Notes under the pieces: generated by a model | Seen by the model: the letters and a program-made list of their open reading frames with translations, nothing else | Database searches by the model: none | Told to the model about the DNA's origin: nothing | Assembly (NCBI GenBank): GCA_965649765.1 | Contig: OZ287757.1 | Location: 3,410,001 to 3,474,000, forward strand | Length of the DNA stretch: 64,000 nt | From: Bispira polyomma | Lineage: Eukaryota | Direction: 5' to 3' | Shown here: piece after piece, positions 10,301 to 64,000 of the stretch | Layout: the number at the start of each line of letters is the position of its first letter | Numbering within the stretch: the first letter of the stretch is position 1 | Position numbers and translations under genes: made by a program

Positions 10301-11415
10301 GGAATTTATTTTCTGTACATGTTAGTAATATATGTTGTGAAATGTAAACAATTAGTTATTTAAAATATTTATAATTTTAAAACGTCTGTACATACGTAGA
10401 GAACATAGTGACAAAGTCACAAAAGCGCAAAAATATCATAACATATCAATCTAAGCAATATGCATACCACAATATACAGGACTGCAATGTCACTGTATGT
10501 GACTACCAACAAGAAAACTGTAGTATGGACAGTGTTAACAATAATGTATGATCCATCGATTAATAGATGAAGTGTACATTTTTATTACAACAAAATAGCA
10601 CCATATAAAAATCTGATAAGTTTGATTAATAAGTTCGATAAAAACATATTCCAATTAATACTCAGGATAATCCTGGTAACAAACAGGGCCAGTCAAAAAC
10701 CTAAACCTCATTGACAGAGGTAATAATTGACGATTAGAAGCAGTTCTACAAATTAACAACCATTATCAATAGTATTACAATTTAAGTGTGGTGTTCAAAA
10801 AACTAACCAAAATCAAATAATAACAATGACTCGATGTTGGTGTGATGAACTATATATAGGGTTCAGTTTAATCAGGAAATTAGTTATAACACAATACCAT
10901 CACCATTATTCATACAGTATTCACCATATATCATTCAATAACATATATATATATATATATAGTTATCCTTTATCAATTGTAAATATAAAACATAACCATA
11001 ATGTGACCCTGTGGTGGACCACATCAGCAATGACCACACAAATCAACCGAAAAAAGTACAACCTCCAAGCTGCCAGCTGCTGCGCATTCGCCTTCAACAA
11101 AAAATTCCAAAAATGGGGACCTGGGTGAAACGAGAGTTATGAGAGTAGTGTCTTGTATCTTGCATATTTTGCTCAAGCCAATGCTATAAAATATTACCTT
11201 AAACAATACTTTTACAAACCCAATTTCCATATAATCCTAATAACAGTAAAGTTTATTTACAGACATAATTTACTGCATATTTATATGAGACAAACTTAAA
11301 AAATGTAAGCAATCGTTTCAAATTTATTTTTTGATCTTCTTTGCATTATTCAAGGTTCATTTTGCATATTGTTTTATTCATGCTTTACCAATAAGTAACA
11401 CGAAAACTTCAGCCT

Positions 11416-12428
11416 GATACATTAAATTATTGAAGCAACAGCTGATGCCCACTGTACCAAAACAGGGCTGTGAAAGTTAAAAACAGGGAATTTGTGTTTG
11501 CTTTGTGTATAGAATAATACAATACTAAGGATATATTTGTGGATATAAGGTAATTGCATTCCACTCAGCACTATGCAATAGTATTATTTAAAAGTAATGA
11601 CGGAAATAGCCAGAGCTTTTCCATAATCATACATACGAAAATAAGGCAGACATCTGCAGTCAGTTCAGAAATGTTTAAATGCCAGTTAAAATTAGGAATG
11701 AACAAGCCCACAAAATCATACAAAAAACCTTAATATATGTATCTTACCTTAATATATCAAAACCACAAAAAAACTTGCACTATTAGAGCCTAAACTGTTT
11801 ATTTGTCCTATATTGTAGACCACAGCTCCCTACCACTTCCAAGATTAGCTTATCGACACATTAGAGAGCTTTAAAGAGCTCTATTTGCATTATAAAATAG
11901 CGATGCGTAGGTTCCAGCAAAGTTACATCATTGCTATAAAAAACTAATACATAAACCCATTATGATTAAGTATTTTTTCTTGCTCAATAGAAGTTTAGAT
12001 CGTGTAAAATATTTATGTTAATTAGAAGCATTTATATAGTGTTAAATTTGTGCAAATTTTAGCTGATGTAAAAGTGCATATCATATAAAATCGAAGCTAA
12101 GGTTATATAAGTCTGTTTGACTGTGAAAAGACTTAACATGGGACAGGGTATACACAAAATATACAAAAAAATATATAAATCATAATAACAATGTCTGAAC
12201 TTTTAAACATATGTAAAATTTACATATAAAATCATATACAATATCACTATAACACCCCTAAATATTTTCAGTAGCTATTCATATATTACAATTATAACAT
12301 TAACTAGTCAGTGCCAACAGTTACAACATTTAAAGATTGTGGACAAACATGACCAATCATAAATTCATTGGAGAAAACAACCAAACACAAAAAAACTGTT
12401 TTATGGTTTGGTTTGGGAGAACACTTAA
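11416..12428 (+). repeat. ~1 kb dispersed repeat, copy 1 (copy 2 at 37812..38836)
   Basis: Collinear similarity from aattattgaag to tttgggagaacactta in both places, same orientation, visibly diverged. Confidence 0.8.
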
Positions 12429-23200: not shown

Positions 23201-26200
23201 ACTGGTACACTTAGTTCAATTATAATTGTTACCAAGCAAAAAAAATATATTTCCTGCCATCAAAAACCATCCATTGAATCTAAAATTTACTCCTGTATCT
23301 AAAATTCACCACCCCTATGATTTAAGCCAAATAAATAAAAACTGGCGAAAAATAACTGGTAAGGAAGGCAAATTATTCATAAAAATATTAGTTTAAGCAA
23401 ATATTTACCCCAATTCTACCCAAAACACAACATTTTCTAGGTTGCAAATTTCAGATTGTGGCAAATTTTATATTCCTTACAGCCACAGCCACCCATTAAC
23501 CAAAGTATGTATATATAGGTTATATATCTTCCCAAACCTAATGTTTGTCTTGTATATTATATATTCCTTTCGAAACCATTTCAAATGGGCTGTAATGGAA
23601 CCTTTAATCAAATCTGAGGATCCCAATATTTAAAAGCTAAATACCTTCTATACTGCATATATTCACACCAAATTAATTTTGGACCAACTAGAGACCAAAA
23701 AGTGTATATATACCAAATTCAAGAGCATAACTCCCTACAGATTCAGAGATTACCCTGTTGACACGTTGTAACCATGTGTAACCAAGGTTCTTCCACTATA
23801 ATTGGATTTCGAGAACCATCTACTGTGGGTACCCAGTTTGGTAAACCAAAGGCAAAATTCAAAGTAAAATCTGAAACATATGATATTGTTTAAACCTCGA
23901 AAGTATTACTAAATATAACTCACTGGGCCATTTTTGGTAAATTCCCTGTTGCAGGTGAACAAAGGTCTGAATTTGAAATTGTTATGGTAGTTCCACGAGC
24001 TGAAATTACATAAAATATAACATTACCGTAAATGGCGTGCATCTTGTAACTATTCACTTAAATATAGTTTCATGATTCAAAGTATCAATAAGCATTTGTA
24101 TCTCTATTTCTCTGTGATTTACTTGAACTGAAACTAAATTACCTAAAGTGAAATGTTTATTGATCAGAGACCCTCTCTTATCCAAGTGAGTTGGACATAA
24201 ATCCTGATGATGTAAGAGTTGAGAAGCGGTATTTGCTAAGAAAAAATATCCTAGTGTATATGTATGCATTAATTACTTCTAGGGATTTCCGATTTAACTA
24301 AACTGTTGAGTGACCGCCTTTTGATCGGCAGGTCCATGGATGTAAACCTGCCAGAGGTATTAGCTTCGATTTTAATATTACAATCCTCAACCACCAGGTA
24401 AAATATTATAAGGGTTGAGGTTTAAAAACAGTTCAGCGCCCATATTCACTAAAGTTCTTATACTTAGAATAATTCTTATACTTAGAATAAGAATCATTCT
24501 TATACTTAGAATAAGAATCATTCTTATACTTAGAAAATTTTCCATTTTAATAATTTTGTTATTCCTATTCTTAGATTAAGAAATTTCTTAACTAAAAATT
24601 GTAAAAAGCAATACATAAGAATGCCAGGGGCCGTATTCACTAAAGTTTTTATACTTAGAATAAGACTTTTTCATGTTCACTAAAGTTGTCATACTTAGAA
24701 TAATTCTTATACTGAGAATTATGCTTAGAAAAATTCTTATACTTAGAATTTTTGCTTATTCTTAGAAAGTTTTCTAAGAATGAGCTTTGATTCTAAGAAT
24801 GGGAAAGACCTTACTTAAGTTAAGAAAAAAACATGGCATTCTTTATGTAAGAATAGCTAAGAAAATTCTTATTCTAACTATAAGAATAAAAAATTCTTAG
24901 AATAGAAAATTTTTTAAGCATAAGAATGATTCTTATTCTAAGTATAAGAATGATTCATATTCTAAGTATAAATATGATTCTAATTCTAAGTATGACAACT
25001 TTAGTGCATATGGCCCTATGTCTTTTTCTTAACTTAAGTAAGGTCTTGACCATTCTTAGAATTAAAGCTCATTCTTAGAAAATTTTCTAAGAATAAGTAA
25101 AAATTCTAAGTATAAGAACTTTAGTGAATACCAAAACTTCTTATTCTAAGTATAAGAACTTTAGTGAATACAGACCCAGGTATTACCCACCCAGGATAAG
25201 CCGGGTTAACCTGTACTGGGGAATACTTGGTAATACTTTCAAAAGTGAGCAATACTCTAAAAGGCTGGGTAATACTGCGAAAGGTTGGTCATACTAAAAA
25301 GAAACCTTGAATAATAATGTATATTTTTTTTTAAATATTTATTTACATAAGTCGATGAGAAAGATGTTTTTTCCCGACAAGTTATAACTGTTCAACAATT
25401 TATGGAAACTAATGAAGGGTTAAAATTCTGCTTTTATATAATTGTTGTTAAAAGATTAAAGGCCACAGTACTGAAGTAGGAATGTCTCTAATGTGAGATG
25501 GTGTAATCCCACATAAAATATGATATGAAAATTATCCTGTAACAGAAAGTATTTGCCACTTAGCTCAGGTAAGTCTAAGGTTTCACTATAATAAGTTGTT
25601 ATGGTGGGCTGACGCCCGTGCGACAGCCCCCCTCAGTTCTGGTGGCAGGTCACTGGGAGGCTAATTAAGCCACCTGGGGTCACGGGGGCAAGTATAAAAG
25701 GGATTGCCGCCAACAGGCGCCATCATTAGTGAAAAACAGTTCTTAGATACAAGTGTTTTTACAATTGGGGTTTTTACTACCCAGGGCTTTTACTACCCAG
25801 ATATTGTTTTACATTTTAGTTGAATGTGTAGTCATGCCTAAGGAATACCCGTGTAGTGTATGTTCTGGTCGGCACGGACGTCCAGTTGGGAAGAAATGTA
25901 AATTTAATCCGTTGGACAGCGTCGCTGATGAGGTGGCTGCCGTTGATCCTGCTGTGCCTGCTGTTTCTGATTCCGTATCTAGTTTGATACTTCAACAACT
26001 GGTTGTAATGAATGAGAAGATGGACAGCATGGATCAACGAGTACAAGCTACTGAGGCGGCGCTGTGTAAACCCAGCGCCCAGGCATGTAACACAGTTTCT
26101 AAACCTGTATCTAATGTCCCTAGTGTTAGTGAACCAGTGATTGAGGCCGTTGTGCCCTCCCTAGATTACCTGCGTTCAAATTCCAGCTTACAAAGTCAGG

Positions 26201-29200
26201 TAGACCAGCGGTTGCTGCAACTGCAACAACTCCACGATTTAACGGGAGGTAAACTGAAATCCCAAAGAGGTGGCGCGGAAGCGCCCGTTAAACGTCATGT
26301 TGATTGGCCACAAAATTTTGTCTTGTCTGGTGTAAAAAAGGTTAGGCCCACTTACGATGACCTTACTTTGGTACAGTTCGTTTCCGGCTTTGTTCGCTGT
26401 ACGCAAGAGCAAAAAGACTCCTCGGTCCGCGAGGCTATGTTGGAATATCTGGCATGCCTGATGGATGACGCCCATGATTTTTCGTGGGACGCCGCCAAAG
26501 CCGCTCACGCCATTTTATTGACCAACATGGAAATGGACCGATTGAACTGGACAGATGTCGAAAAGGTCGACCGGATACGCCGCGCTCATGCACAGCGTCA
26601 TGTAACGTCCTCAGCTAGTGGGTCTGGCCTTTCTAAAAGCAATATTGGCAGTAGGGGTAAAACCTCGGTGAAAACAGTGGGAGTAAACTGTCGATTCTTT
26701 CAGGAAGGCACGTGCAAATTTGATGCCAGCCATCGCACTTCTGGACAGTGGTTCAAACACTGCTGTGAGAGCTGTGGTGGCCCGCATCAAACCAAATTGT
26801 GCTTCAAAAAATCGGCCGCAAAAAACTAAGGGGCCACTGCAGTAGTGCAGTGGCTGCTAAGAAACTTGTACGTGAAACCTGCTCCAGAGTTGTATATAAT
26901 TCTACTTTTAGGGATTTTAAACTGTTTGATCATGTGTGTTGTAAAGATAATATGTATACTGGACCCCGACTTAACAGGTCATACCGGGACGTGTTGCAAC
27001 AGGGCCTTGTGGTTCCTGGTATCGAGATTGGTGAAAACCGGGAAATGGGGACAGTTAACCCTATGTCTGTTAATAAAGCCCCACAAGGTAGTGTGTTCCA
27101 TAATACCGCATTACACAAGTTGTCGGGAGGGAGGCATTCACCCGTGGAAGTGTTAAATACACCCGCTGACAGGCGACGTGAGAAAACAATTCACCAAAAG
27201 GTGTTAAGAAAAACACCTTTGGGTGGTGTGAAAACTTCTGTGAATAGGCGGGTCGGTAACCATGCAAACCGGGTGTTACAAAATCAACCAATTGTGTCCA
27301 AAACAAGTAAACTAAGTGATGGCCAAGGCGGGCCTAGACGGTTGGGTTCTCTGAGTGTGAAAACAATTGGCGCGGGTACCACTTCCAGTAATGCTAACAA
27401 TAGTGGGTTTCGCCTTCCCCTGCATAACCGGTTTAGTGGCCTAGACATTCCTGATGTAGAATTTCCTGAATCTGTTGACACGTTGGGTAAGGTCGATTTC
27501 ACACCTATTCCACTTCTTGACTCGAGTGACACGTTGGGTAGGGTCGATTGCACACCTATTCTACCACCTGACAAGAGATCTAACCCGTGTGATGACAAGT
27601 ATGTACTGGACCTCTCAGGAGGCCTTGATAAGAGACAGCGCTTAAATGCAGCTAAAGATAATGTGACCTACAAGTTGTGGGATATACAGAATAGTGGGAA
27701 GTATGGGTTCATACCAACTAGTTCCTGGGGTAACCCAGTGATTGATAGCTCCAATAACCAATTGATCACAGATGTGTTTACACTACATAAGGCCCTTAAA
27801 TTGGATGGGAGACCAAATTATAAGGGTTTACAAGTCCCCATACATACCCAACTGACGGTCCCTGCCTGGGAAAAGTATTTAGCTAATTATTGGGATTGGG
27901 AACTCCCCTTACTGATAAAATTCGGATTTCCTCTTGACTGTAATGAAGAACATGACTTCAAGTCTGACTTGAACAATCATGCTTCAGCCAAGCAATATCC
28001 TGAGCATGTGAATCATTACCTGAAAGAAGAATGTTCTATGGGTGCTATGTATGGACCTTTCGTCCATCCCCCAATTGATGATGTGCACACATCTCCATTT
28101 ATGACTAGAGACAAATCAAGCTCGGTTAACCGACGAGTTATAATAGATCTCAGTTGGCCCATCGGTCATTCGGTTAATGCAGCTGTGTCATCAAATTCGT
28201 ATTTGGACAAGGAATTTGTACTTACTTACCCTTCTATAGATGACATAACCCAACAAGTGTTGCAAAACGGTAGGGGCTCCTTGCTATTTAAAGCGGATAT
28301 TAGTCGCGCATTCCGTCATGTGACCATAGACCCCAGAGACATCAATCGTCTGGGCTTATACTGGGACGGCTACTATCTCGACGGCTCGTTGCCCTTTGGC
28401 TACCGACACGGTTCGGTGATTTTTCAGAGAATTTCTGACAGTATAAGGTATATCATGGAAGGTGAAGGTCATAAAATCACCAACTATATCGACGATCTCT
28501 TATGTTCTGCTGTTCCCTCGAAAATCTATGAAACGTACCACCGACTGCAGGCCCTTTTGGCCGAGTTGGGTTTGACTCTTAGCAAGAAGAAGCTGGTTCC
28601 TCCAGCCACCCGGGTAACCTGCCTAGGCATAGTTATAGAAACAGTTCGGTTCACTACATCCATACCAGAGGACAAACTAGCTCAGGTTCAAAAAATATGT
28701 GCCAGTTGGAGTGATAAAAAGCAGTGTACTAAGCGGCAGCTCCAATGTTTATTGGGTTCTTTGCTGTATATTTCCAAATGCGTGAAGTACTCACGATTTT
28801 TTCTGAATCGGATGTTGCAACTCCTCCGAAGCAATCACCACGAAACAAGTATCAAAATTAACCCTGACTTCAAAAAGGACCTTAACTGGTTCATTCAGTT
28901 TCTCCATAAGTACAATGGGGTGACATTTTTTCATCATGCCCCCATCACTGACATTGTAGAGTTGGATGCCTGCCTAACAGGCATGGGAGGAGTGTATGGC
29001 AAACAAGTATATTACCTTCCCATTCCTGCTGCTATGCACAAACATAATATTGCTTCATTGGAGATGCTCAACATTCATGTGGCTTTGAAGTTGTGGGGCA
29101 AATACTGGCAGGGACGTAGACTGTTAATTAAATGTGATAACCAGGCTGTTGTGAGTGTCCTTACGCATGGTAGAACTAGAGATAGCGAATTAGCCCTGTA

Positions 29201-32200
29201 CTCGCGGAACATATTCATGCTGGCTAGCCAGCTCGATGTAGACATACAGGTCGTCCATATTCTAGGAAATAACAATACCACCGCTGACCTCTTGTCTCGT
29301 TGGACAAATTCAAGTAAGGATAATGTTCTCTTACAGGAGCTGGTGGGCGATGTCCAATGGTGTGCCGTGACAGAGGACCACTTACTGCTCAATCACCACA
29401 TTTAGATATTCCTTGTCCGGTTGCATGCTATTATGTTCATCAGCCTTTACAAATGTTACTTTGTCTGCTTGTGTTGTGTTATAGCTAGAACTCCCCTGCA
29501 GCAGTTATTATATCAAAATGCAACGAAGAAGCTTCACTTGGCCTTCTGCAGGTCCACAGACAGATCTTATACTGCGATGTATAGGGTGTACCAAGCTTAT
29601 GCATCCTTCTCGGATCTGCCTTGTGACCAGGTGACAGCTATTGATCTTCTTGCTTTTTTAGAATTTTTACACTTTAACTCTGTAAAACCTGCCCATATGG
29701 CTAATTATTTATCTGCTATTAAAACTAAGAGTATTGTATACAATGTGCCCATTCTTGCCTTCAGTGACCCTCGCTTGGCTTACTATCAAAAGTCTGTCCA
29801 ATTGGCTGCCCCCTTAAATGTTCAGCTCAAAAAGATTATAGACATACCTCTTCTGACGAGTATTGTCAATGTCTCCAACACCACTTACATGGGTCCTATC
29901 TTTACAGCTGTGTATTTGGTCAGCTACTTTTCCTTCCTCAGGTTATCTAATTTAGTACCCCATTCCTGTCTTCAGTTTTCTGCTTTGAGACATCTATCCA
30001 GGGCTGATGTCATGTTTCACAGGGACAAAGCTGTCCTTTTGGTAAAATGGTCCAAAACGATGCAGAGCAATAATCAGATTAGACTTATTACTATCCCACG
30101 CTTGCTGGGTTCTCCTCTTTGCCCTGTGGGGTCACTGCAGGCAATTATGGCTCTTACTCCGTCTGAACCTAATTCACCCTTATTTCAATTGAAAGACAAA
30201 TCTCACTGGGTTCCGCTTACGGACACCCGTGTCCGCAGGCATTTCAAAACGATACTTGCCAGGCTCCAGTTGCAGGATTCTGGCCTCACACTGCACGCTT
30301 TCCGACGTTCGGGTGCCACTTTTGCCTTTAACCATAACGTCAGCATTCAGAACATCCAAAAACATGGCACTTGGACGTCGGATTGCGTGTGGAGGTATGT
30401 TACCGACTCAGTGGATGCGGGACAGCAGGTATCGGACACATTTCGCCTTCATCTTGCTACTTCTTCTTCCTAGTTCCTACGTGCTGGGTTTGGGTGTTTC
30501 TACTCAAAATTTAGTCTATATTTCATATTCTAGATAATTATGTAATTTTTGCTTTACATGTAGTCACATACTAGTCATGTATAGTGTCATATAGAATTTA
30601 AATTACTATTTCACTTGCTACTCATTTCATGTTACAACTATAAAGTTAACTTCACAGAGTAGTGTTTTATTTCCTAGTAATTGTATGCTACAACTAGTAA
30701 TTCAACTTCATGAAATAACTGTTTCATTAAAAGGTAATACAATCTGTAATTAACTGAAAAATTACAACTTAACTCTTCTTCTATACATTTTAGGGTCACC
30801 TCAATTTGTAATTCCCTTATGGGTTAAAAATTTAGTATACTAACCTGTATTTAAGGTGATCTTTAGCCCCCCTTTTGTAGTATAAATTTGAAGATCATCT
30901 CCTTTTTAAGTACCCTACGGGCTTTGTCATTTCACTTATTTAAACTGTCTTGGGGTGACCTTATCTTGTTCTTTGAGGTTATGTAAAATATTTTATTACT
31001 TTCACTCAAATTAGTATGACTTAAAGTTACAAATTACCGTGACCTTAAGTCACGTTGTATATAGTAGTTTAACATAGACTAACAATAAAATATTTTACCG
31101 CATTCTGCTTACTTACTATCTTGCTTTCTTGACCTCTGACCCTTTGGCCTGTCACGCGGGAAATGTGGTGGGCTGACGCCCGTGCGACAGCCCCCCTCAG
31201 TTCTGGTGGCAGGTCACTGGGAGGCTAATTAAGCCACCTGGGGTCACGGGGGCAAGTATAAAAGGGATTGCCGCCAACAGGCGCCATCATTAGTGAAAAA
31301 CAGTTCTTAGATACAAGTGTTTTTACAACCCACCCTGTACCCTCCCATTTAACAGTTTGTTATAGTTGTAGAATGTCGGTGAAGTACAGTTCCATGGATC
31401 TCAGCGACGTCTGGACCCTTATGGTGTAGCTAGCTGCTTGTGCTCCGGTGGTTCTGATCCTCAATCATTGTGTTAAGTAGGGGGCTATATTACTTAGCCA
31501 TGTAGGACATATGGAAAGAGCTAGATAAGGATCTCTGTAAATAACCCAGTCTAATGGTTTACCACTGGATAAGGCCTAAGGTTAAGCGCGCATGGACCTG
31601 GATTTTAACAGAAACGAACATTTACGTAAAGGGTCTTACTGCTATGCGACTTTTAGCTAAGCACAGACTTTTCTTTTATATAACGGATTTTACTTTTATA
31701 CTTTTACCTTTACGTATGTCTTGCAGACTAACTTATAGCATTCTGTGTACTGACTTTTCTTTTATGTAACGGATTTTACTTTTATACTTTTACCTTTACG
31801 TATGTCTTCCAGACTAACTTATAGCATTCTGTGTACTTACCTGCGTGTAAGTCTTCTTTTAACTATCCTTTATGTGTGTTACAATTTTATATATATAATG
31901 GGTGTTTCTACTCAAAATTTAGTCTATATTTCATATTCTAGATAATTATGTAATTTTTGCTTTACATGTAGTCACATGCTAGTCATGTATAGTGTCATAT
32001 AGAATTTAAATTACTATTTCACTTGCTACTCATTTCATGTTACAACTATAAAGTTAACTTCACAGAGTAGTGTTTTATTTCCTAGTAATTGTATGCTACA
32101 ACTAGTAATTCAACTTCATGAAATAACTGTTTCATTAAAAGGTAATACAATCTGTAATTAACTGAAAAATTACAACTTAACTCTTCTTCTATACATTTTA

Positions 32201-33667
32201 GGGTCACCTCAATTTGTAATTCCCTTATGGGTTAAAAATTTAGTATACTAACCTGTATTTAAGGTGATCTTTAGCCCCCCTTTTGTAGTATAAATTTGAA
32301 GATCATCTCCTTTTTAAGTACCCTACGGGCTTTGTCATTTCACTTATTTAAACTGTCTTGGGGTGACCTTATCTTGTTCTTTGAGGTTATGTAAAATATT
32401 TTATTACTTTCACTCAAATTAGTATGACTTAAAGTTACAAATTACCGTGACCTTAAGTCACGTTGTATATAGTAGTTTAACATAGACTAACAATAAAATA
32501 TTTTACCGCATTCTGCTTACTTACTATCTTGCTTTCTTGACCTCTGACCCTTTGGCCTGTCACGCGGGAAATGTATGTCACATGTTGTTTGTTTACTGGT
32601 CTCTTGATTGTGACATATTTCGCTTGGGGTCAATATGGTTAGGTCGCAAGAACAGAGATGTCACCCGCCAATAGGCCTACTCGATGTCGAGCCCACACGA
32701 CACTTGAAACTCATGAGGCATGAGGATGCTTATTTTATTGTGATTACTGTGCTTTTTTTTCTCCATCAAAATCCGTTAACAAAAGGCTCAGATGTTTATG
32801 TTTATTTAACTTCCTCTTTTACTATGATTAATACATCACAGCAACGTCATAATGACGTCAGTTTTGTAGCTACGTCACAACTTACACAAAAGGGGATAAC
32901 AATGGGTACCCATCTATAAACTTTAATATATGAGCTATTTTTTAACAGATTTGATGAAAAAACAACAGCACAGTAATTACAATAAAATAGGCTTTCTCCT
33001 GCCATTTTCCAAGTCACTATACCACAAATTTTTAGTGTATATCGGATGAAAGGAAGCACAACGTCGGCCTATGTCGGATTGGATCGATCAGACACCTTTA
33101 AATGTGCTGAAAGGAAGCTTAGGCTTATATTTCTGGCACAAAAATAAATATGTACTTACCACTATCAATTTCACCTGGTTTCTTGAGTGCTCCCAATTTA
33201 GACTTCCCACCTGTATCCTGATTTTTTTCCTGTTCATTGTTTTCCTGCGTAGTTTCTGACATTTCCCCACAAGGAGCATTGCTTCCATTTTTATATCCCT
33301 CCACTGGTGGAGTATGCCCAAAGGTATCCAGATCTTTCTGGAGACCCTGTTGTATAATAGGAGCCATTTGTAGGAAAGTCTGCATATCTGACTTTATCTT
33401 GTTACCAAGGCCTGATTCAGATTCTGCAGAGTAACTTAAAGACACATCAGAGACAAACTCCTTCATATAGTAAATCTCATCTATATCAGTTTTTTCATGT
33501 TTCATGTCAGATTCAAGCAGTTGTTTTAGCTGTTTGCAGTGTGCTGTAAAATCTTTAGCCCCTTTATAACAATCAGTGTGGTCCTCAGCACTTCGGTATT
33601 CTAGTGGTAAAACCAGAAGGTTCTTACAAACTGTCTCTGTCTGCTCCTTGCTTAATCCAAAAGCCAT
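14211..33667 (-). CDS. Coiled-coil protein with MIEAP/SPATA18-like C-terminal domain, 10 coding exons, ~556 aa
   Basis: join 33667-33160, 23999-23924, 21578-21459, 20608-20483, 19241-19116, 18187-17983, 17693-17589, 16557-16420, 14995-14881, 14362-14211; all GT-AG, phases match, total 1671 nt with one terminal TGA. Motifs RLSKEMG..NIENIS..HRP...Y..F...W.EAKEAL, LAWKMIVQRPPM and YVFPSLYHGKSVMVKGTV resemble the MIEAP C-terminal domain (recognised from memory, not searched). AATAAA at 14138-14133. Confidence 0.8.
15600..16200 (+). mobile_element. Degenerate L1/Tx1-clade LINE ORF2 fragment (post-RT region), intronic
   Basis: GKITVINTLMLPK...IPN...IQEINTIFYKFIWDDKLDKVSR matches the GKITVIK..LPK...FIW..KPDKIKR pattern of Tx1/L1 ORF2; stops and frameshifts around it; boundaries approximate. 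Confidence 0.7.
16630..17460. repeat. Probable non-autonomous repeat with degenerate internal subrepeats
   Basis: Recurrent aa(g)atggc/gcc-aaaatt and tcgcacc/atttct motifs; boundaries approximate. Confidence 0.4.
22081..22920. repeat. Minisatellite, 26-bp unit (taactaacccaact[c/t]aatatatgatg), about 32 copies with some shorter variants
   Basis: Directly visible head-to-tail units with no unique spacers. Confidence 0.95.
23033..23882 (+). repeat. Pair of ~78-bp near-identical direct repeats (23033..23109 and 23803..23882)
   Basis: tggatttcgagaaccatctactgtgggtacccagtttggtaaa...atctgaaacatatg occurs twice, differing by a 3-nt indel. Confidence 0.9.
24436..25176. mobile_element. Palindromic AT-rich MITE (nested or compound), PIF/Harbinger-like
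   Basis: Ends cgcccatattcactaaagttctt / aagaactttagtgaatacagacc flanked by cag on both sides; inner ends gggccgtattcac (~24628) and gtgcatatggccc (~25016); many tcttatacttagaat subrepeats in both orientations. Related ends at ~8390, ~48474, ~52417. Confidence 0.7.
25602..25764 (+). repeat. Element 1 repeat A1
   Basis: Identical by eye to 31166..31328. Confidence 0.95.
25693..25727 (+). promoter_or_regulatory. TATA box plus initiator inside A1 (copied in A2 at 31257..31291)
   Basis: TATAAAAG at 25693; TCATT initiator-like motif with its A at 25725, 32 nt downstream. Confidence 0.65.
25834..26829 (+). CDS. gag: Gag-like ORF1 of element 1 (331 aa from first ATG)
   Basis: N-terminal C-x2-C-x3-H-x7-C motif, coiled coil, RPTYDDLT..QFVSGF core shared with element 2, C-terminal Cys/His cluster CRFFQEGTC...H...HCCESCGGPH....C. 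Confidence 0.85.
   Translation: MPKEYPCSVCSGRHGRPVGKKCKFNPLDSVADEVAAVDPAVPAVSDSVSSLILQQLVVMNEKMDSMDQRVQATEAALCKPSAQACNTVSKPVSNVPSVSEPVIEAVVPSLDYLRSNSSLQSQVDQRLLQLQQLHDLTGGKLKSQRGGAEAPVKRHVDWPQNFVLSGVKKVRPTYDDLTLVQFVSGFVRCTQEQKDSSVREAMLEYLACLMDDAHDFSWDAAKAAHAILLTNMEMDRLNWTDVEKVDRIRRAHAQRHVTSSASGSGLSKSNIGSRGKTSVKTVGVNCRFFQEGTCKFDASHRTSGQWFKHCCESCGGPHQTKLCFKKSAAKN
26799..29405 (+). CDS. pol: Pol ORF of element 1: reverse transcriptase plus DIRS/Ngaro-type RNase H
   Basis: RT motifs FKADISRAF, LPFG, YIDD, CLG; RNase H motifs LDAC, LEMLN, KCDNQA, ADLLSR. Confidence 0.95.
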   Translation: MLQKIGRKKLRGHCSSAVAAKKLVRETCSRVVYNSTFRDFKLFDHVCCKDNMYTGPRLNRSYRDVLQQGLVVPGIEIGENREMGTVNPMSVNKAPQGSVFHNTALHKLSGGRHSPVEVLNTPADRRREKTIHQKVLRKTPLGGVKTSVNRRVGNHANRVLQNQPIVSKTSKLSDGQGGPRRLGSLSVKTIGAGTTSSNANNSGFRLPLHNRFSGLDIPDVEFPESVDTLGKVDFTPIPLLDSSDTLGRVDCTPILPPDKRSNPCDDKYVLDLSGGLDKRQRLNAAKDNVTYKLWDIQNSGKYGFIPTSSWGNPVIDSSNNQLITDVFTLHKALKLDGRPNYKGLQVPIHTQLTVPAWEKYLANYWDWELPLLIKFGFPLDCNEEHDFKSDLNNHASAKQYPEHVNHYLKEECSMGAMYGPFVHPPIDDVHTSPFMTRDKSSSVNRRVIIDLSWPIGHSVNAAVSSNSYLDKEFVLTYPSIDDITQQVLQNGRGSLLFKADISRAFRHVTIDPRDINRLGLYWDGYYLDGSLPFGYRHGSVIFQRISDSIRYIMEGEGHKITNYIDDLLCSAVPSKIYETYHRLQALLAELGLTLSKKKLVPPATRVTCLGIVIETVRFTTSIPEDKLAQVQKICASWSDKKQCTKRQLQCLLGSLLYISKCVKYSRFFLNRMLQLLRSNHHETSIKINPDFKKDLNWFIQFLHKYNGVTFFHHAPITDIVELDACLTGMGGVYGKQVYYLPIPAAMHKHNIASLEMLNIHVALKLWGKYWQGRRLLIKCDNQAVVSVLTHGRTRDSELALYSRNIFMLASQLDVDIQVVHILGNNNTTADLLSRWTNSSKDNVLLQELVGDVQWCAVTEDHLLLNHHI
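26820..26855 (+). promoter_or_regulatory. -1 programmed ribosomal frameshift signal (gag-pol)
   Basis: A_AAA_AAC in the gag frame directly before TAA, 6-nt spacer, perfect 9-bp hairpin gccactgca-gtag-tgcagtggc; pol is in the -1 frame. Confidence 0.8.
29485..30473 (+). CDS. Tyrosine recombinase of element 1 (frame open from 29421; probable splice acceptor at 29484)
   Basis: Catalytic set LRLSN (R), WSKT (K), HAFRRSGAT (HxxR), HGTW, VWRY (Y); LCPV motif. Confidence 0.95.
30491..31166 (+). repeat. Element 1 repeat B1 (AATAAA at 31084)
   Basis: Matches 31899..32574; one mismatch noticed (A30570/G31978). Confidence 0.95.
31166..31328 (+). repeat. Element 1 repeat A2
   Basis: Copy of A1, abutting B1 with a 1-nt overlap. 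Confidence 0.95.
31329..31898 (+). other. Element 1 unique non-coding spacer; candidate structured RNA; contains an 86-bp tandem duplication (31666..31837)
   Basis: Lies between A2 and B2; hairpins ggcta/tagcc and ccagt/actgg; homologous motif at 63401..63510. Confidence 0.6.
31899..32574 (+). repeat. Element 1 repeat B2 (AATAAA at 32492)
   Basis: Copy of B1. Confidence 0.95.
32715..33124 (-). mobile_element. Truncated copy of the MITE at 34784..35470, opposite orientation
   Basis: Reverse-complement match of the core (acgtcataatgacgtca...gctacgtcacaac); ends tgctgaaaggaagcttaggc followed by tta. Confidence 0.75.
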
Positions 33668-35470: not shown

Positions 35471-37811
35471 TTACCTCAACACATTAGGACATAGCCATTC
35501 CTGCATTCTGTTCGGTGTCGTTTCAAGACCCTATTTGTTTAGACAACTTGTCTCTGTCATTCATAATTTTTTATATTTAAATTTATTTATTTATTCATAC
35601 ACAAAGTATAATATTACAAACACAGAATACATAAATGTTTTCACAACCAGGAACAAGGAACAATGTTATTATAGTTTCGCAATTACATTAAATTTTATAC
35701 AAATCTTTATGATGTACACAAACATTCTAACATATAATTAATCTCAGTATAATTAAATTTAGTATGATTTATCTCTTTAATCATAATAATAGACAATAAT
35801 AGATAATAAGATCTCTAATATTTCCACATATATTTCATCATCTGTGTTAATCTGAGAGTGAACATGTTTGTCACTTACATTTTTAAATTTTTGATGTGCT
35901 TTAAGAGCACATGTATAGCTACAATTGAGTTCCTTTGAAATTACATAAATATTTTTTTCCACATTGGAATGACTTCAACAAACACCCAGTCTACCAGCAA
36001 GTTTTACCAATTGTTATCACTGGTCAAAATTGTATGTTTAAATTTGTTGAATCTTTTATACAACCGCACATTAATTGGGACATCATTGTATACTAAATGT
36101 ATCTCTATCGTTTTTACTTTTGCATTTGAACCAATTATGTCATTATATGATTTAATGATTTTTTTCTATTTTTAGGGATTGGTATAACTGTTGATACAAG
36201 TAGGTCGCCAGGTGAAAAACAATGCTTTAACATAGAGATGTACAGTAAAATAGGATATACATATAATTTATGACAACCATGAATAATGACTTTATTTTGG
36301 CTCTCGTGCTTTTTATTAATACTAATATGCCCACATATAACACGGGAATACGTGTGATTTGGTTATCTTAAATATTTAATCACCATATATTAATATTTTA
36401 TATTAACATGCGTAATTTAATGTAAAAAAAAAGATGTAGAATTCTTCAGAAAAATTACTTTTTTTGTGCTTGTGTGTGTGTGTGTGTGTTTATTTCTCTG
36501 TGAGTCATATCAGTACACATAATAGCGTAGATTATAATACAAAAAATAAGCTGACGGTATATCTGACCAAAATAGTTCAAACGTTGGTTTAATGACTTTT
36601 CTTCTCTTTCTAAGTGAAATACAGCCTATAGTAGTTAAAACATTTTAGTGTTACCCATTGTATCTCCATAATTAAGTGTGAACTGTATTACTGTATCATA
36701 TATATGATGGCATTGTGATTGTTGACACCTATAGTCACTTAGTACGTTCTGAATCAACAAAATAATATTATCCTCTCATAAAAACCCCAGGATACTCATC
36801 TATTTACTTTACGGTCAAAAATATAAATTGTATCATATAGTACAAGGAAACAAACATTGACAAGCATATTAGTGATTGTCATAATTATTCTATCTATCAT
36901 TTTGATGGAAACAATTCAAAGGGGCACACTAATTCATCCTGTTGACTTACCTCTAAGTCCCAGTGAGTTCCGGCAAGTTTGGACACTCTATTCCTTTGCA
37001 TTGCTAGTAAAAAAATAAAGCAGTAAAGTCAAATAACCTGTTGTTTTTTTCTTATTTAGTATATCTAATATATCATTCCAGATATAAACCTATGTTCATA
37101 AATAATTAGTTTCCTTAAAATTGGTCACTTACATTTCGAATATCAGTTTGTCTTCTTCATCCAGTTCTGGTGCTTTATGGTGCAGCACTTGTTTGACTTC
37201 TAGACATCAGTCATACACTGGTGGTAATCATTACCAACTGTCATTGGATTATGTTTGAGACTAATGTTTTCAAGTTTACCAAAATATTACTTATTCTACA
37301 AGTATATTTAATTGTTTCACTAGTTTTCGTGCTACTACTAGTTTTCGTATTTTTTCTTTGAACTTTTTATTTTTGATCTTTATATATTCAAAAACAAATC
37401 TTTTGTTTCAGTCTAATGTTCGGGCCAAATTATGCGTTATTAAAGGTAATATCAAGGTTTATTTTGCATATTTTTTATTGACATTTTACTGATAACTAAC
37501 ACAAAAACTGCATTATATTATCTTAAAGTGTCTATTTAGATTATTGAAGTTTTACACTTCAAACATAACAAATTGCAATAAGCTAAGTCTGTTAAGTATG
37601 CAGTGATTTCATTTGTCGAGAAGACTTGTGCACGTGTACTGTACTTGTTGGATATTTTGTTGCTGTCTTCAAAGGGTGAAGGCAATTATTGATGTATTAT
37701 ATTATGGATGGCAGTAAAATTACCTTTGTTGTGCGTCAGCACTATATCTGGACGCATGTTTTTTGGTGTGAATGGTGTTGGGCATGCATTTTGTATTTCT
37801 TACAAGACACT

Positions 37812-38836
37812 CATACATCGAATTATTGAAGAAACGGTTGATGACCACCATAACAAAACAAGGCTGTGAAGGTTGGGAACAAGGAGCTTGTGTTTGCTTT
37901 GTATGTAGAAAAAGACAATAATAAGGTATGCATTATAGGATCTATTTGTAGATTTAAGGTAACTAAATTCCACTCAGCATTATGCAATAATATCGTTGAC
38001 GTTTGTCTAACAAGGAAATTAGGGGAAGTTCCCAATAATCATACATACAAAAACGAGGTAGACATCCGCAGTCAGTGAACAAATGTTCAAGCGCCTGTCA
38101 AAATTAGGAATGGACACACCCACAAAATCATACAAAAACCCTAATATCTGTATCCTATCTTAATCTATCAAAATAAAAAAAAATCATGCACAACTAGAGC
38201 CCAAACTGTATATTTGTCCTACAGGTCCCTACCACTAACAAGATTAGCTTGTCGAAACGTTAGAGAGCCTCAGAGAGCTCCAGTTCCGTAATAAAACAGC
38301 AATGCGTAACTTCCGCAAAATTATGTCATTGCTGTAAAAAATAGTGAATTATGTGTGACAACATTCATTGTGATTCACCATTATTTTTCTCAATCAAAAC
38401 TGAGATGCTTGTATAATATTTATGTTGATTAGAAGCATTTATATTGTGTTAAACTGGTGCAAAGTTTTACTGATGTAAAAGTGTGGATCACATAAAGTGG
38501 AAGCTAAGGCTATATAAGTCTGTTTGATAATGGTGAAACACTAAACATGGCACAGGGTCTACACGAAATATACAAAAATATACAGAAATACTAACAATGT
38601 CTGAACATTTAAACATATTTAAAATTTATATATAAAATTATGTACATTATTACTGTAACACCGCTACATATTTTTAGATGCCATTCATATGACAATTATA
38701 ACATCAAATAGTCACTGCCAACAGTTAAAACATTAAAGGTTTATGGACAAACGTGATCAATTATAAATTCATAGGAGAAAACAACTAAACAGAAACACAG
38801 TTCTGTTTGTTGTCTTGATTTGGGAGAACACTTAGA
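37812..38836 (+). repeat. ~1 kb dispersed repeat, copy 2
   Basis: See 11416..12428; homology stops where the element 3 remnant begins. Confidence 0.8.
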
Positions 38837-38839: not shown

Positions 38840-41800
38840 TGTGCAAGGTGCTTACATAAGGGCGTTATGATTGTTAGTCTATTTCGCACTATAAATTTAG
38901 AATAAAATGAAGAAATATAAAAAACCCTAGTGCTGACCCCTTTTGAACAGAAGATGCAGCACTGGGGTTGGAGTAGCTGTGATATACAAATAGTTTGAAA
39001 TAGGCAGTACTGTAATGTATAACATTTTCGCGGCTGACTAACCATGCTACTTTGTGACAGTGACGAAGACAGCCGAGTCAAATGATAGTGAGTTTTGAGG
39101 TCAAGGTCATAAGATGCAGCCTGACCTTGTACTGGTGTGAAGGTGAATATTAATTTGAGAAGTAATGAGTCTTATGCAGTTTGGGATATTTATTTATAAA
39201 TCTTTAGCTTATATATACAACTATACAGAGAATTTTATATTAGAACTGAAATTTAAAATGCCAAAGCCAAACTAAAATTTAGAAGAAACAATAGAAGGGA
39301 TGATAGAAGGAGTAGGAGAGGTTTTTTGCAGGTAAGTTCATACTGTATCTGACTTCCAGCACCCATGTTTTTAGATGTGCTGGAGTTTTATGCTAGAATT
39401 GAAGGCTAAGGAGGCGCTAGAGCGCCTGAAACAATTGAAAGAATGACCATCACTGGGTATTTATCTGTGTCAGAATAACTTTTAAGGAACATCTTAACTT
39501 GTCAGTTAAGCAGAGGCCTTGTTTGAAAGATTTGCTAACAAATGATCTATGGAATTTTGAAAAAGAGATTTGGCAGCCATAACAGGACACAGCCAAGGGC
39601 TGCTGAGTAATGGTAGTTGTATAATATCAAATAAAATCCTAGCCTGGTTTGTCTTGGACCATTTTACTATTAAGTGGATACCAAGAGGAGCAAATAAGAT
39701 ATCTGACCTTGTGACATGTCTAGTGGGGTCAACGGGGGTACCTGAAGAGGGTGTGAGATTTAATGTACAGAAGGCTGTTTTAAAAGATTTAGGATGCTCA
39801 CAGGTTGGAGAAATTTGTAGTAGCTAATTTAAGTCCAAAACCCCCTTCAGTGTATATTTGTAGTTGATTTCTAGAGATCTAGTGTAAAGAGGTAATCTAG
39901 GGTCATAGAGACCTGTGTTTTGTATGTTCAAAACGTTGGTGTTGTGACTTAATGCTAAAAGATAATTTGTGATAACTTTGTGAGAGATTCCTGATTGGGT
40001 CAGGAACTTAAAGAAAGCTATAATACTGTTAAAACTAAAAGTTTGTTTTAAGTCGTCATTGGCTGTGAAATATAGAAGCAATTGAATCTGATTGTCATAC
40101 TGTTTCTGTGTTCTTGGTTTGTGATTCTGTTCTATACGTCTAAAAGCGACTTTTACCAGTGAAGTGGCTTGTATGGAATTGTCTGAAATTATATATAACT
40201 TTCAAGGGTAAATAAGTCAAGTGGAATGGCATACATAATGAAGTTGTCTGTAATAAGGTTTTTGACATAATCAGCATAATGTACTGATTCATACTATCGA
40301 GATCAAGCATCTGTGATTACATTATCTTTGCCTAGAATATGACTGATAATTTAGTATTTTTTGCCAAATGTTTCGAAGGCATAGACCTGGATATTCATCT
40401 CTGGTCCTAGAAGACTACACAACAGCTACCACAGCCATGTTGTCAGACTGAATCTTATTTATTTTATTCTTCCATTCATGACCCCAGGGTTTTAATGCTA
40501 TTAAAATGTTGACCATTTCGAAATGCACAATGAAAAAATTGTGAGTCATGATAAAAAGAACAGCAACCTTATCTGAGATGCCACCTATGTCCGATAAGCA
40601 GGTGTTAACCTGTAGTAAAATGTCAATATCTTTGTTTAAATAAATGTACTTGGAAGTACCATTGAACTGCTTTAGAAAAAGCAGAACCCACTGTAAGTCT
40701 TTATGAAGTTCGCTGATTAAGATGATAGCATTCCGACTCGTGGATTTACAAAGTTCAAGCAAGAGCATCCTGTCTATAAAAATCCGAGATGGTTTAATAC
40801 AGCGATGTATGTACAGTAGATTACCAAGCAATGGCTGGTAATTTTGTTTCCCAACTTTCCCTTAGAATTTAAAATCAACACAAGTATTATGAATCAAATT
40901 TAGCTTGTCTTTGTCTATACTGAGGGTTTTTCGTCAATGTCGAAAACAATGCCCATACATACAACTCATTTGCTGGGTGGTACTAGTTTACTGGGGTTAA
41001 TAGGAAGACCTAAGTCTGTCAGTATTTGCTGTAGAGTTTCAAAAGCTAAGGTGGCCTTATCTTTATGTTCTATGAATATGAAGTCATTGATGTAGTTCAT
41101 AACTGTATAACCTTTTTGTTTCATTATGAAGGTAATACAGTCAGAGGTCACCATAAAAGCAGCAGTCCCGTAAGTAAGTCCAAAAGTAAAACTTTAATCA
41201 AGGAAGCATTGCTTTTTCCAGATATAACCCAGTTTCAAACAGTCATAAGGGTCTATTCTGAGATTACGAAACGTGTGTGCTACAAAATATTTGTCAACAG
41301 CTTCTGAAAAACTTCTAGTTGAGTATCGGTTCTTAACATTTGGGACTGATAATCTATCTCTATCATAAAGTGAAATTGGAAAGCCAAATTCAATGTATTG
41401 TAAGATGATATTGTCAGGGTAGTCTGTGAACTATTTCTTCAAATTTTCGTCTTTGAGATTATTCTTAAGAGGTATCCTGACTTGTTTATAATTGGAAACT
41501 TTTCTTAACAATTTCTTAACAATTTCTCAGCAAGTTTGTGATAAGAATTAATGTGTTTTTTTGCCTTTCTGGGCCTACGAATTTGAAGTAATTCTGTCTA
41601 TGACACCATAAGTTTTATTACTAAAAATAGTGAGGGCCTCATGTCTGACATTGTCAATACTGGTGTCTGATGATTCAACTGTCAAAATAGCATTGATCAT
41701 GATGTCTTTATTATGCACTAGTGTAGGTTTTTAAATCATAAAGTTTTCATTATGTACTAATAAAGGTTTTTGAATCATAACATTGTCATTATGCACTAAT

Positions 41801-59681: not shown

Positions 59682-62600
59682 TTGGGCTTAACTTTATTTT
59701 ACCTCTCAACATGTATATAAACACTAACTTGTAGATAATAAAATCTCAAATGAAATCTTTTACTGCCTTCAACAATTTCACCTTAAACTTGCAAATTAAC
59801 TTACCACCAGTGGACTGTGCATAGCAAGTCCCCTTTAGGCGACTGCTAGTTCAGTCCACCATCCCTCTTATTATACTCTACCTTAAGACCCCCTAGCGAA
59901 TGCTACAGTATTATTCACTTCTCTTTCTATCCATAGCTACTAGCGAATCAAAGCACAGATCACCTGTGACCCTTAGCTTCACTAGCTATCCTCCATATTG
60001 TATTTATTATTTCACCTGTGAACAGGACTTTGTGGAAAATTCAACCCTCCACCTCCCCTTTACCACAGCACTTATCATTTATTCTAGCTTAAGGTTTCTG
60101 TTTAAATCCAAGGCTGCTATTTAATGGGGCGACAGAGTGGGTGCAAGCTCTGGATCCCGAGCCGTGTGATAGGGGGTCCGGGCTTCTTATTCCCTCCCCT
60201 AAGCAAACCACTGGGGTGCCAGGGTAGAATAAGGGGCTCTGAGAGCCGGTACCTGTCCCTCTGCTAGGCGATTAGGTGTCCAAGGCCCGGGGTCCTGTCC
60301 CCTCACCTGCTGTCTACCTGATTTAAACTTACATTTGTAGCTTTGACGCATGTTTTAAAAATTTTCTTGGCTTGATTGGATGGGTTGACATTAGACTCAC
60401 TTGGACATTACTTGTGGACAACATACATAGGTTTACACTGGAAATTACCCTGAGTAGGATTTTCCAAATGACCGATTTGACCTAATGTTAGAGTTCTAAA
60501 CCACAGGGGTGTGAACCCAACGTATTAGGTGTGTACATCTCAGGTACAAGATGCCTAATTCATGGCTCAAGATTGGCGTGATTGCACAAGGTAGTATGTA
60601 GTAAAATAAAACGGCAATATAGCATGTGTGGCTAAGGCCTGTTAAGTTATACCACTGCACGTATGCATTTATTTTACGTTTGTAGTATGCATTTTATTTA
60701 TGTTTTAGTTTATTAATGTAACGAGAAGTTTGGAAATTAAATACTCTACTGGTTCACCAGTTGTGACTAGATCTGTATCATTGGCCAGCTGTGCTGGTTC
60801 ATGGCATTGTAGGGTATATTATTCCTGTTGAGGGAAATGTTATGTTTCTAACACAAAGTTTAGTATGATCAAGGGTTCTATACTAGTCTTTAAATTTGTT
60901 TTGTTTATGGCTAGTCCTATTTTGTCGGTACCATTGAGGCTATTCCTCTGGTCAGTGTTAGCCTGTGTGGGGCTTAAAATTTTATGTTATAAAAATTTTA
61001 AGTTTATTTTACCTCTCAACATGTATATAAATACTAACTTGTAGATAATAAAATCTCAAATGAAATCTTTTATTACCTTCAACAATTTCACCTTAAACTT
61101 GCAAATTAACTTACCACCGGTGGACTGATGTACATTTCTGAACATACAAAGGAACACTAATGGAGAACATTAAGAAATAAAATATTTGCAAATTATGAAG
61201 AAAGACAAAACTTTATATACAGACAGGTTACCTATAGTTCAGTTGTAATGTATCTTACAAATAAATTAACAGATATGTAAAACATTAATATAGAGATTAT
61301 TTCTAGAAATTAGACTGCACATAGTTGATCTGACATTTAATTTCATTTACTTCAATTAAAATATGATTGTCTGGGAGCCCTCAATAAAACATCACCAATA
61401 TGTCAAGCTTTAATATCCTGATCATTGGTTTAACTAATATGTGTAGCAGTTCATCGCCCATTTCTTGAAATATAAAAAAAAGTATGACATTGTTTGAGTG
61501 GGAGAAAAATTATATAAACCAATGACATACAATTAAATGTACACCAAAGGTTACAAGTATAGATGGACTTTTACACAGTATTATTTCCGAATAATATATT
61601 TACATTAGAGAAGGTCCAGGTCTGTATAAAGATCACAGAGCACAGTGTTTTAATTCTAGTCATGTTTGGCATCATATCATGTTATTATTTTCATTATTTT
61701 AAGCTGTCCACACAACTCGCTCGCAAAGTATTTAATGAGATAATCCTATTATTGTCAGCTGCTAATTATGTCATTAGTTTATTTGCACAAGAGGTTATTT
61801 TTGTTGTAACGCCACATCATAATCAGTATTCAAAACAATAATCCGATAGGAGAAAAGGTTCCGGATTGGAGTTCAATCCTGATCAGCAGACAAATGTTAA
61901 GGCGGAAAAGCGAGTTTGTGTGGTGACATGGGGCAGCAGTCTCAGTCCAGTCGCGAGCTTAACTTTTTAATATATATAGCCAAACAAAGGCTACTAAAAT
62001 ACCTACCTGTTTTATCATTTAAAATAAACAAACAAAATCAATGGCTTAAATATATAAGGCAGGGATGAGAATGACTACAAGGCATTGAGGGCTTCTTTTT
62101 ACTTCCAAATTAGGAACTGAATTAACAACACTAACTGAATTTACCCATCCTCTTCCACCCTATATAAAATATTATTCCATGTATTCAACAGAAGTTATGT
62201 GTCACAAAGTGAGTTCATAAGGTTTATTCTTTAAGCTAGTTCTGCCTGGGGTCGTTATGGATTTTGGATTCTTAGTTTTTAATTCTGGTCTATGGTGTTC
62301 TGTATGAAGTCATTGTGGGTTTACTATGGTTTTGATCAGTATGGGGTGTGTGTTTATGCGTCACTGCACACAGCATTATAGTGTGGAATTAGTATCTTGG
62401 GTTTTAGTTTGTTGGAAGCCACACTTTTGGCAGTACATGTTTTGAAGCTCCAGTCTGTTGTTTGCAGGAAACTTCCAGCATTGAAGGTATTAGTTTAAGA
62501 TTGTTTCAATTCACACTAAAATTATATCCTAGTTATTACATCTATTCATATCACTGGTGATTGATAAACATTACATACTGTTACATATAATTACACAATA

Positions 62601-63159
62601 AATACATAGTTCATATAGTTTAACTTGTGTTGTATTTGCATAATGGTTGTGTGGTGTTATGCTTCATTTCTAAGTGCTGTTTGATTATTTTCAGCTGGTT
62701 TTAATGTGGGGAACTTGGTTTCCATGTTGTGATGATGCTGTTCTAATGGTGGTGTGGTTTTGATTATATGGATCATTAATACTGAGCATTTTCATCTCGC
62801 TGGAGATATGGTTGAATGATCATCTCGCTGGAGATATTACTGTGTTTGGGTTCCTGACATGTTGACATTACAAGCTGGACATTAAATTACAGTGAATTTA
62901 AACATTACACTAAACACTGAACTGTTACATTTTATTGATAAATATATTTCTTTGTGTGTTTTGTTTTATGTGTATGTATATATATATGGTGTGGTAGTGT
63001 GTATGTGTGAATGAGGGATGTGTTTATGTTTTGATACATGCATATATATATATTTCATGATCACTCTATTTTAAAGCGTATTAGCTGGTGTTCTGACATT
63101 TTGAATTTAATAACGTTCCATAAATTCAGAGTGTGTATCATTTACCGTACGAGCCTCAT

Positions 63160-63520
63160 TCCGGCCCTGTGACATTATGTGGTTTTAGAATTTTTGTGGG
63201 TCGTAAAATGTGCAGAGCAACTGAGAAATCTGGTCACTAGTAGTGGGACGCATGGGAGATGGTAACTATTGGCAGAGTACTCAAGCAAGGACTATGATGC
63301 ATGTGCACAAAACTATTCAAGATGCATGATTATCTGATAACATGTTTATATATAAATGCTTTGCTTAAATAGTTAAAGTATCTCTTTAGGTAAGAAATTA
63401 GTTAACAATATGGGGCTGTATTATTTAGCCACGTAAGGAAATGTTACATGAGCTAGCAAGAGATATAAGTAATGATCAGCCAGTGAGATCTCCAGCATTA
63501 TACTGTAGGTCAGTTCGCTC
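63160..63520 (+). other. Orphan segment homologous to the element 1 spacer (possible remnant or non-autonomous Ngaro derivative)
   Basis: ggggctgtattatttagccacgtaagga...gagctag..aag.gat....gtaa......ccagt aligns to 31481..31550; weaker similarity from ~63160. Confidence 0.55.
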
Positions 63521-64000
63521 CGAGTAATAACACCCAACATACTTCACAAAATTTTATTCCATGTTTTTATGTAACATGCATTTTATTTATATTGGGGTTT
63601 ATATACCTATTTACCTACATACATATTTACATATATTGGCCATTAATGTCTTTAAATATTGTATATGCTATACCAATACATGATTTGTGCTTACAGAATA
63701 TAGATACATATAGTTTAGCAAAAAGGACAATAACTTAATTGTAATTCATTGACCGTGTGTGTGTGTGAAATCTACATATAACAGGTAACCTTAACGTTTC
63801 AGGTAATTATAAATCATTTCTAAATTTGAACAAATTATAAATATCTACGGGGTACTCACTTTTAACTTCAACTCAAACTCAACCTAAATACCTAAGCCTG
63901 GCTTCCTTAAGGTTATGTTAAACTAAAGATAGTTAAGGTGACCTTAACCATCAATTTAAGGGTGTGTCAATAAACGTAGAATGTAGGGGTGCAAATAAAT

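Follow-up and report, generated by a model that had tools for sequence, protein, structure and literature searches.

What is the element 1-like sequence near 63 kb of the window (the whole 64,000-nt stretch of DNA analysed here), and what does the motif that it shares with element 1 do? The original prediction regarded it as an orphan copy of a structured RNA motif from the spacer of element 1. Ngaro elements are tyrosine-recombinase (YR) retrotransposons of the order DIRS with the layout A1-[ORFs]-B1A2B2, as set out in excerpts of PMC8547959 and PMC9210276. Element 1 was of the Ngaro type, with gag, RT/RNase H and YR ORFs, the YR located 3' of the RT, and split direct repeats (A1...B1 A2 B2) plus a spacer:

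25602..25764, + strand: A1, with a TATA box and a GCCAT initiator-like motif (100% identity to A2)
25747..30473, + strand: ORFs for gag (weak CCCH finger), RT/RNase H and tyrosine recombinase
30491..31328, + strand: B1 (30491-31166) and A2 (31166-31328)
31329..31898, + strand: A2-B2 spacer, 570 bp, with a C-rich tract at its start and an acceptor-like motif at +34
31444..31569, + strand: folded domain with helix c (31444-52/31561-69), helix d (31456-61/31528-33) and core (31478-31524)
31899..32574, + strand: B2 (99.85% identity to B1)

The CCCH-finger match in gag was weak (E=0.05-0.06, below the cut-off), and the ORFs of element 1 gave no Pfam match to a methyltransferase domain. A possible hairpin spanning both repeats was seen at the B1|A2 junction (31146-31193). 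The window also contained a third YR/RT element, decayed, at 39329-41292 on the minus strand; the adjoining sequence at 37810-38795 was 79-87% similar to 11414-12391.

The similarity of 31472-31568 to the 63 kb region was real. The local alignment scored 66, compared to a mean of 41.8 (sd 3.1, max 50) for 100 dinucleotide shuffles, and a profile of 11 element-1-group sequences matched 63409-63471 (E=2.8e-4). The matching region was about 63401-63480, compared to 63401..63505 in the original prediction, and the similarity covered ~60 nt. As predicted, no coding remnant was found beside the 63 kb copy, and the suggested search past position 64000 recovered a B repeat (63624-64062). The A repeat, reported as missing, was present at 61917-62143, a solo LTR having moved it away from the motif. 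The features of the region were as follows:

61917..62143, + strand: A repeat of the solo unit (72-82% identity to six other loci)
62144..62160, + strand: C-rich tract marking the A2/spacer boundary, decayed CCCACCC-type
62161..62199, + strand: 5' spacer stub, closing with the first TTATG target duplication (62195-62199)
62200..63174, no strand assigned: unrelated solo LTR inside the unit, 975 bp, with TGTCACA...TGTGACA ends
63175..63188, + strand: second TTATG, followed by a decayed 9-mer that resembles a splice acceptor, YAGTTKYAG (63180-63188)
63378..63386, + strand: 5' strand of helix d, pairing with 63458-63466 (9-bp complement, family-specific sequence)
63409..63456, + strand: core, consisting of TA(A/T)GG, hairpin 63414-18/63426-30 with a 7-nt loop, ACGTAAGG, linker and AGCTAG
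63458..63466, + strand: 3' strand of helix d
63624..64000, + strand: B repeat, continuing to 64062 beyond the window end (75% identity to the B of locus L324)

The insertion at 62200-63174 was flanked on either side by TTATG, a 5-bp target duplication. Its right half had 51 matches, several of which were same-strand pairs ~5.8 kb apart; together with the terminal sequences and the duplication, these pairs identify the insertion as a solo LTR. Among 14 loci of the LTR family, 11 matched from 62200 and all ended at 63172-63181. The family is abundant, with copies 88-95% identical, and younger than the spacer family that this LTR splits. A candidate A remnant at 63070-63150 was ruled out, as it proved to be LTR sequence.

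The A repeat had its 5' end at the same base in four of six related loci and was 76% identical to A1 of L324, the coding parent described below. In locus L067, the counterpart of the 61917-62199 piece adjoined that of the part starting at 63175 without interruption. This contiguity, combined with the A repeat and C-rich tract to the left of the LTR, indicates an A-spacer-B unit of ~1.17 kb. The B repeat contained TAAGG-NNN-CCTTA palindromes as well as AATAAA at 63969 and 63994, and its relatives stopped at 64031-64067 or 63938-64011; the L324 B used for comparison sits 3' of the YR gene. The unit thus combined a precise A start and B end with the lack of an upstream B1 or ORFs, as in a solo AB repeat.

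The region 63175-64062 belonged to a dispersed family of 72-90% identity (25 and 58 matches to its two parts), and L067, L033/L068 and L342 had the same A-spacer-B layout as the window unit. When coding remnants were sought in 31 family loci, one clear parent emerged: L324, a decayed A-gag-RT/RH-YR-B element that keeps A1 and one B only. The remaining coding matches came from nested or unrelated elements or amounted to faint traces. In the YR tree, this parent grouped with L279, not with element 1 (97/93, long branch). Rather than being an orphan of the element 1 spacer, the 63 kb sequence has its own A and B and comes from a different and older family. Both reciprocal products were represented in that family, A-spacer-B (window, L067, L033/L068 and L342) and A-gag-pol-YR-B (L324), the two layouts that A1 x A2 and B1 x B2 recombination, respectively, should leave behind. 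We conclude that the 63 kb unit is very probably a solo A-spacer-B of an old Ngaro family, likely produced by A1 x A2 recombination. The copy itself is an ordinary decayed solo unit.

It is improbable that solo units of this kind are non-autonomous elements copied in trans. Their A is promoter-like, they contain the core and the true element end on either side, and four are known in the solo's family. However, they contain no internal B|A junction from which their ends could be rebuilt, and with 72-85% identity they are no closer to one another than to the coding parent. In the young family of element 1, just 2 of 30 loci were solo A-spacer-B, and the solo AB repeats described for Cafeteria Ngaro have already been attributed to recombination (PMC8547959, section 11). 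From the suggestion of a non-autonomous derivative, what stands is an ORF-less derivative, with no sign that the solo unit moves by itself. One copy of the element 1 family (L019/L020) carried an additional tandem A-spacer-B, which is the reciprocal outcome of an unequal recombination event. Another solo unit of the old family contained a repeat-less Ngaro element in reverse orientation (L067:1694-7112), and in L035 and L065:9088-10000 a 55-bp spacer piece of this family formed a tandem array directly upstream of the core.

What, then, is conserved between the spacers? The shared core comprised ~45 nt, not the ~100 nt originally claimed, and consisted of TAAGG, a hairpin with a 5-bp stem and a 7-nt loop, NNN-TAAGG and then AGYKAG. 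The core set contained 165 instances in 45 clusters at 80% identity, of which 40 were kept (minus 3 truncated and 2 doubtful); most copies derive from patterns that demanded the stem. Across the 40 clusters the stem was of the form GGCTG/CAGCC, the register of the first TAAGG varied, the central T of the loop was present in 37, and the second TAAGG, after three bases, was conserved as T38, A40, A36, G39, G38. AGYKAG closed the core in 33 clusters, and the flanks did not align between families.

Genome searches with core patterns returned 22 matches compared to 0 in reversed controls, and 175 compared to 9; resting on patterns, the core counts are lower bounds. Among 40 pattern loci examined, a YR gene and B repeats accompanied the core in 8 and B repeats alone in 3 more, while 3 were look-alikes at an A start. 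A set of 24 spacers contained 55 copies of TAAGG compared to 17 of its reverse complement. Out of 9834 first-look candidates from a search by YR homology, 150 were scored and 40 taken for layout analysis. A valid A1-B1-A2-spacer-B2 arrangement was found at 12 loci (spacers of 725-930 bp), 2 were mis-assigned by the script, and the remaining loci had no detectable repeats. The core was present in 10 of the 12 spacers collected in this way by YR homology alone.

In the YR tree (25 rows, all YR proteins of this genome), the core-bearing families formed one clade (100/100) with element 2 outside, and recombinases of the clade were 37-50% identical to that of element 1. Nested inside were L176, L178 and L180, which have no hairpin, indicating that the hairpin was lost. 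L176 and L180, from a young-looking lineage with repeats 98-99% identical, read TAAGG-3 nt-TAAGG at this position.

Element 2 had been linked to the motif through taaggcct..gttaag, a sequence that was not kept among 11 element 2 relatives. The core model was negative in element 2 and in six loci of its family:

60045..60997, + strand: element 2 spacer, with the C-rich tract, without the core, and with a different conserved fold

At 60455-60690 this spacer had a conserved multi-hairpin fold of its own, whose sequence was unrelated to that of the core and in which sense-strand G.U/G-C exchanges were frequent. Outside the genome, no YR relatives were found in the metagenome and viral contigs searched. 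Thirteen pattern matches in viral contigs were attributed to chance, since most lay within phage genes in antisense orientation and a YR gene was absent nearby; one of the viral-contig matches, L240, reached a model E=7e-4 but had been picked by the same pattern. Eight metagenome pattern matches were rejected for want of a model score (best E=0.15).

Thus, the proposal of a functional RNA motif in Ngaro spacers holds in the sense that a conserved, partly structured motif is found in A2-B2 spacers, more widely than claimed, although not in element 2. We consider it very probable that the core is a selected cis-signal. The motif is real, old and apparently undescribed for this Ngaro clade: it is not mentioned in the excerpts of PMC8547959 and PMC9210276, the words 'spacer' and 'solo' are absent from the main text of PMC4157794, and no Ngaro spacer motif is described in the titles and abstract openings of the matched literature. 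Note that the original Ngaro papers and Repbase may show the spacer. Spacers of the AGTGAG subtype (L149-L187) had a second conserved stem 3' of the core, GGTGC/GCACC around GGACTCTAA, and closed with TTTTAGCTAG ahead of B2. In some other families the A repeat opened much like the core, with TAAGG ahead of a hairpin.

We analyzed whether the core is conserved as a folded RNA. The predicted change of the ggcta/tagcc hairpin (5 bp, 7-nt loop) to ggctg/tagcc was borne out, with a G.U pair in the window copy. Its relatives L035, L037 and L040 have G-C (GGCTG/CAGCC), a full compensatory change relative to the A-U of element 1, and in the stem of L342, from the solo's family, A-U has replaced G-C. 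In 24 copies collected without a stem pattern, this hairpin (e) had 89 Watson-Crick, 6 G.U and 1 A.C among 96 cells; the 6 to 1 ratio of G.U to A.C favored the sense strand with p=0.06. The stem was kept mostly as sequence, with few double changes, a pattern that a DNA inverted repeat would also yield.

Among 10 element-1-group sequences, helix c (31444-52/31561-69) showed two compensatory pairs and an invariant sense-strand G.U, and hairpin e one compensatory pair. RNAalifold on this group recovered helices c and d but preferred other pairing for the hairpin region. For helix d, cognate pairs outperformed non-cognate ones in 15 clusters of the AGCTAG subtype (p=0.0001) and with one pick per family (n=10; p=0.0009 by helix score and 0.0002 by energy; control window p=0.50 and 0.30), the narrow windows of these tests having been set after inspection of the data. 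The strand test for helix d was weak (4 G.U vs 3 A.C, all three A.C from one doubtful helix). No support was obtained for helix d in the AGTGAG subtype (n=25, p=0.21) or for the enclosing helix with wide windows in all 40 clusters (p=0.10), and single-sequence folding of a 241-nt region of element 1 did not outperform shuffled sequences in either orientation (z=0.72, 0.68).

The additional stems of the original prediction fared less well. Neither ccagt/actgg nor ccttat/ataagg showed covariation in the 10 element-1-group sequences, ACTGG being instead part of helix c, and the three extra stems jointly were equalled or exceeded by 423 of 500 shuffles. A tagct/agcta pseudoknot was set aside: it is invariant in the element-1 group, so that the pairing is uninformative, and AGCTAG elsewhere had no partner visible by eye. 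Nor did the data support pairs between the hairpin loop and bases on its 5' or 3' side (p=0.44, 0.61). Hairpin e is real, an enclosing helix is supported in the AGCTAG subtype, and the core probably acts as RNA.

The spacers shared further signals, counted in 23 complete elements that are related and hence not independent. A C-rich tract abutted A2 in 21 of 23, compared to 0.8% of random 26-nt windows, and YAGTTKYAG was present in 21 of 23 spacers, compared to a 6% background. The core pattern was found in 19 of 23. GCCAT lay 22-48 nt ahead of the A end in 20 of 23; AWTAAA lay near the B end in 22, at 66-88 nt ahead of it in 19. The element 2 spacer had the C-rich tract without the 9-mer and the core. 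In the window, the C-rich tracts (31329-31346, 60045-60058 and 62144-62160) began exactly where A2-A1 identity stops, in element 2 as well, and correspond to a purine tract on the other strand. The splice-acceptor-like 9-mer upstream of the core was near-invariant (TAGTTTCAG; element 1 copy at 31363-31371), and reading frames 3' of it were not kept (1-nt indels).

Judging from sequence, the core is most likely a protein-binding signal of the packaging type on the sense RNA; a role for Gag or in packaging specifically is a tentative assignment. Based on their motifs, A may serve as promoter and B may supply the poly(A) signal. An RNA terminating in B1 would have neither the B|A junction nor the spacer. 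Only a read-through RNA would contain both and could template the whole element, and a tag in the spacer would therefore mark the copyable RNA. The hairpin would bring the two UAAGG motifs within 3 nt of one another, and Gag may recognize this core on the sense RNA, such that spacer-containing RNA is chosen for packaging and reverse transcription. Loss of the hairpin with retention of TAAGG-3 nt-TAAGG suggests a binding platform, not a catalytic core. Against a packaging tag, the lineage of element 2 does without the core, and TAAGG is also the half-site of the B palindromes, which suggests a DNA-binding protein. Moreover, A2 could drive a short RNA bearing the same tag, weakening the argument from selectivity. 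We assign a probability of roughly 40% to the whole explanation, a 63 kb solo unit of a split old family with the core as a Gag-bound packaging tag.

The core could alternatively be an RNA-processing signal for host proteins that together with the acceptor-like motif defines a terminal exon, so that the B2 poly(A) signal is used and the identical B1 signal is read through. As B1 and B2 are identical, the spacer alone can tell them apart, and the presence of the 9-mer ahead of the core and of AWTAAA near the B end fits this scheme. hnRNP A1 and Musashi bind UAG-type motifs. We nevertheless regard such a signal as unlikely. The second motif is no splice donor, position +1 being G in 30, A in 6 and T in 4 of 40 clusters; the non-G clusters include a young multi-copy family, at odds with the invariant GT/GC of a 5' splice site. 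In addition, no conserved donor was found upstream in the spacer, and element 2 is without both motifs.

It is quite unlikely that the core functions as DNA, its direct TAAGG repeats and its inverted repeat around 7 bp being arm- or core-type sites of the tyrosine recombinase, or that it folds in single-stranded cDNA. Inverted repeats with 7 bp between them are reminiscent of recombinase core sites, and the TAAGG half-site forms the B palindromes and opens some A repeats. The cDNA of DIRS-1 is single-stranded according to an excerpt of PMC7192593. However, element and solo ends mapped to the B|A junction, none to the core, and the family-specific long-range helices and the sense-strand G.U excess fit RNA better.

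Could the spacer be the start of reverse transcription, with the C-rich tract as primer-binding site (or its complement as a purine tract) and the core recruiting the RT? The exact placement of the tract against A2, also in element 2, is that of the primer-binding site in LTR elements, and the DIRS-1 primer is stated to be unknown in PMC7192593. Nevertheless, we hold this reading to be doubtful: the tract does not begin with TGG and is hence not a site for a tRNA 3' end, and the core lies at a variable distance of 150-700 nt from it. Similarly, there is little probability that the spacer forms a module devoted to replication. In this reading, it would be transcribed both from A2, into a separate non-coding RNA, and within the full-length RNA, and the primer-binding C-rich tract and the UAAGG-hairpin-UAAGG platform would jointly start reverse transcription. 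If true, this would identify the primer system of tyrosine-recombinase retrotransposons.

The motif is very unlikely to be a novel self-cleaving ribozyme that generates an RNA terminus: other retroelements contain ribozymes, and invariant unpaired bases lie on either side of the hairpin within the enclosing helix, but the hairpin is deleted in the L176/L180 lineage, the linkers are 2-18 nt long, no support was obtained for the proposed pseudoknots, and no Rfam family or descriptor matched. The original prediction had assigned no known ribozyme class. Rfam searches of the window and of six core loci gave no match to the motif. Descriptors of hammerhead, twister and HDV-like ribozymes each matched 0 of 24 spacers in sense (0, 2 and 1 in antisense). 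The ENE descriptor, a U-rich internal loop between two stems, matched 1 of 24 compared to 0.6 expected; the core is purine-rich.

The spacer offers three short, deeply conserved and mutable signals, the C-rich tract, the acceptor-like 9-mer and the TAAGG-hairpin-TAAGG core. Variants without the hairpin or without the core occur naturally and, like the near-identical copies of a young family, are suited to testing these signals, which bear on RNA selection and priming in DIRS-order elements.

Among known systems, the core resembles retroviral and LTR-retrotransposon psi signals in its short purine-rich motifs on a helical scaffold and in the putative zinc finger of the Gag. It differs in its location, close to the 3' end whereas psi lies in the 5' leader, and in the type of the finger, CCCH instead of CCHC. 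Small self-cleaving ribozymes and transposon ENE elements are likewise conserved folded RNAs in the non-coding part of retroelements, but the core contains none of their defining motifs. The internal complementary region of DIRS-1, described in an excerpt of PMC7192593, parallels the core as a non-coding cis element located towards the 3' end of its YR retrotransposon; the DIRS-1 region is complementary to the element ends, in contrast to the core, and here the B1-A2 junction fills that part. The solo AB repeats of Cafeteria Ngaro, like solo LTRs and the units described here, are ORF-less, have both element ends and are explained by recombination of 5' and 3' repeats. Unlike these, the present units retain a spacer with its motif, and the reciprocal A-ORFs-B product was found in the family. 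Finally, the elements share with Ngaro the gag, RT/RNase H, YR gene order and the split direct repeats, and differ from the described B1A2B2 arrangement in that a unique spacer of 430-1030 bp with conserved signals parts A2 from B2.
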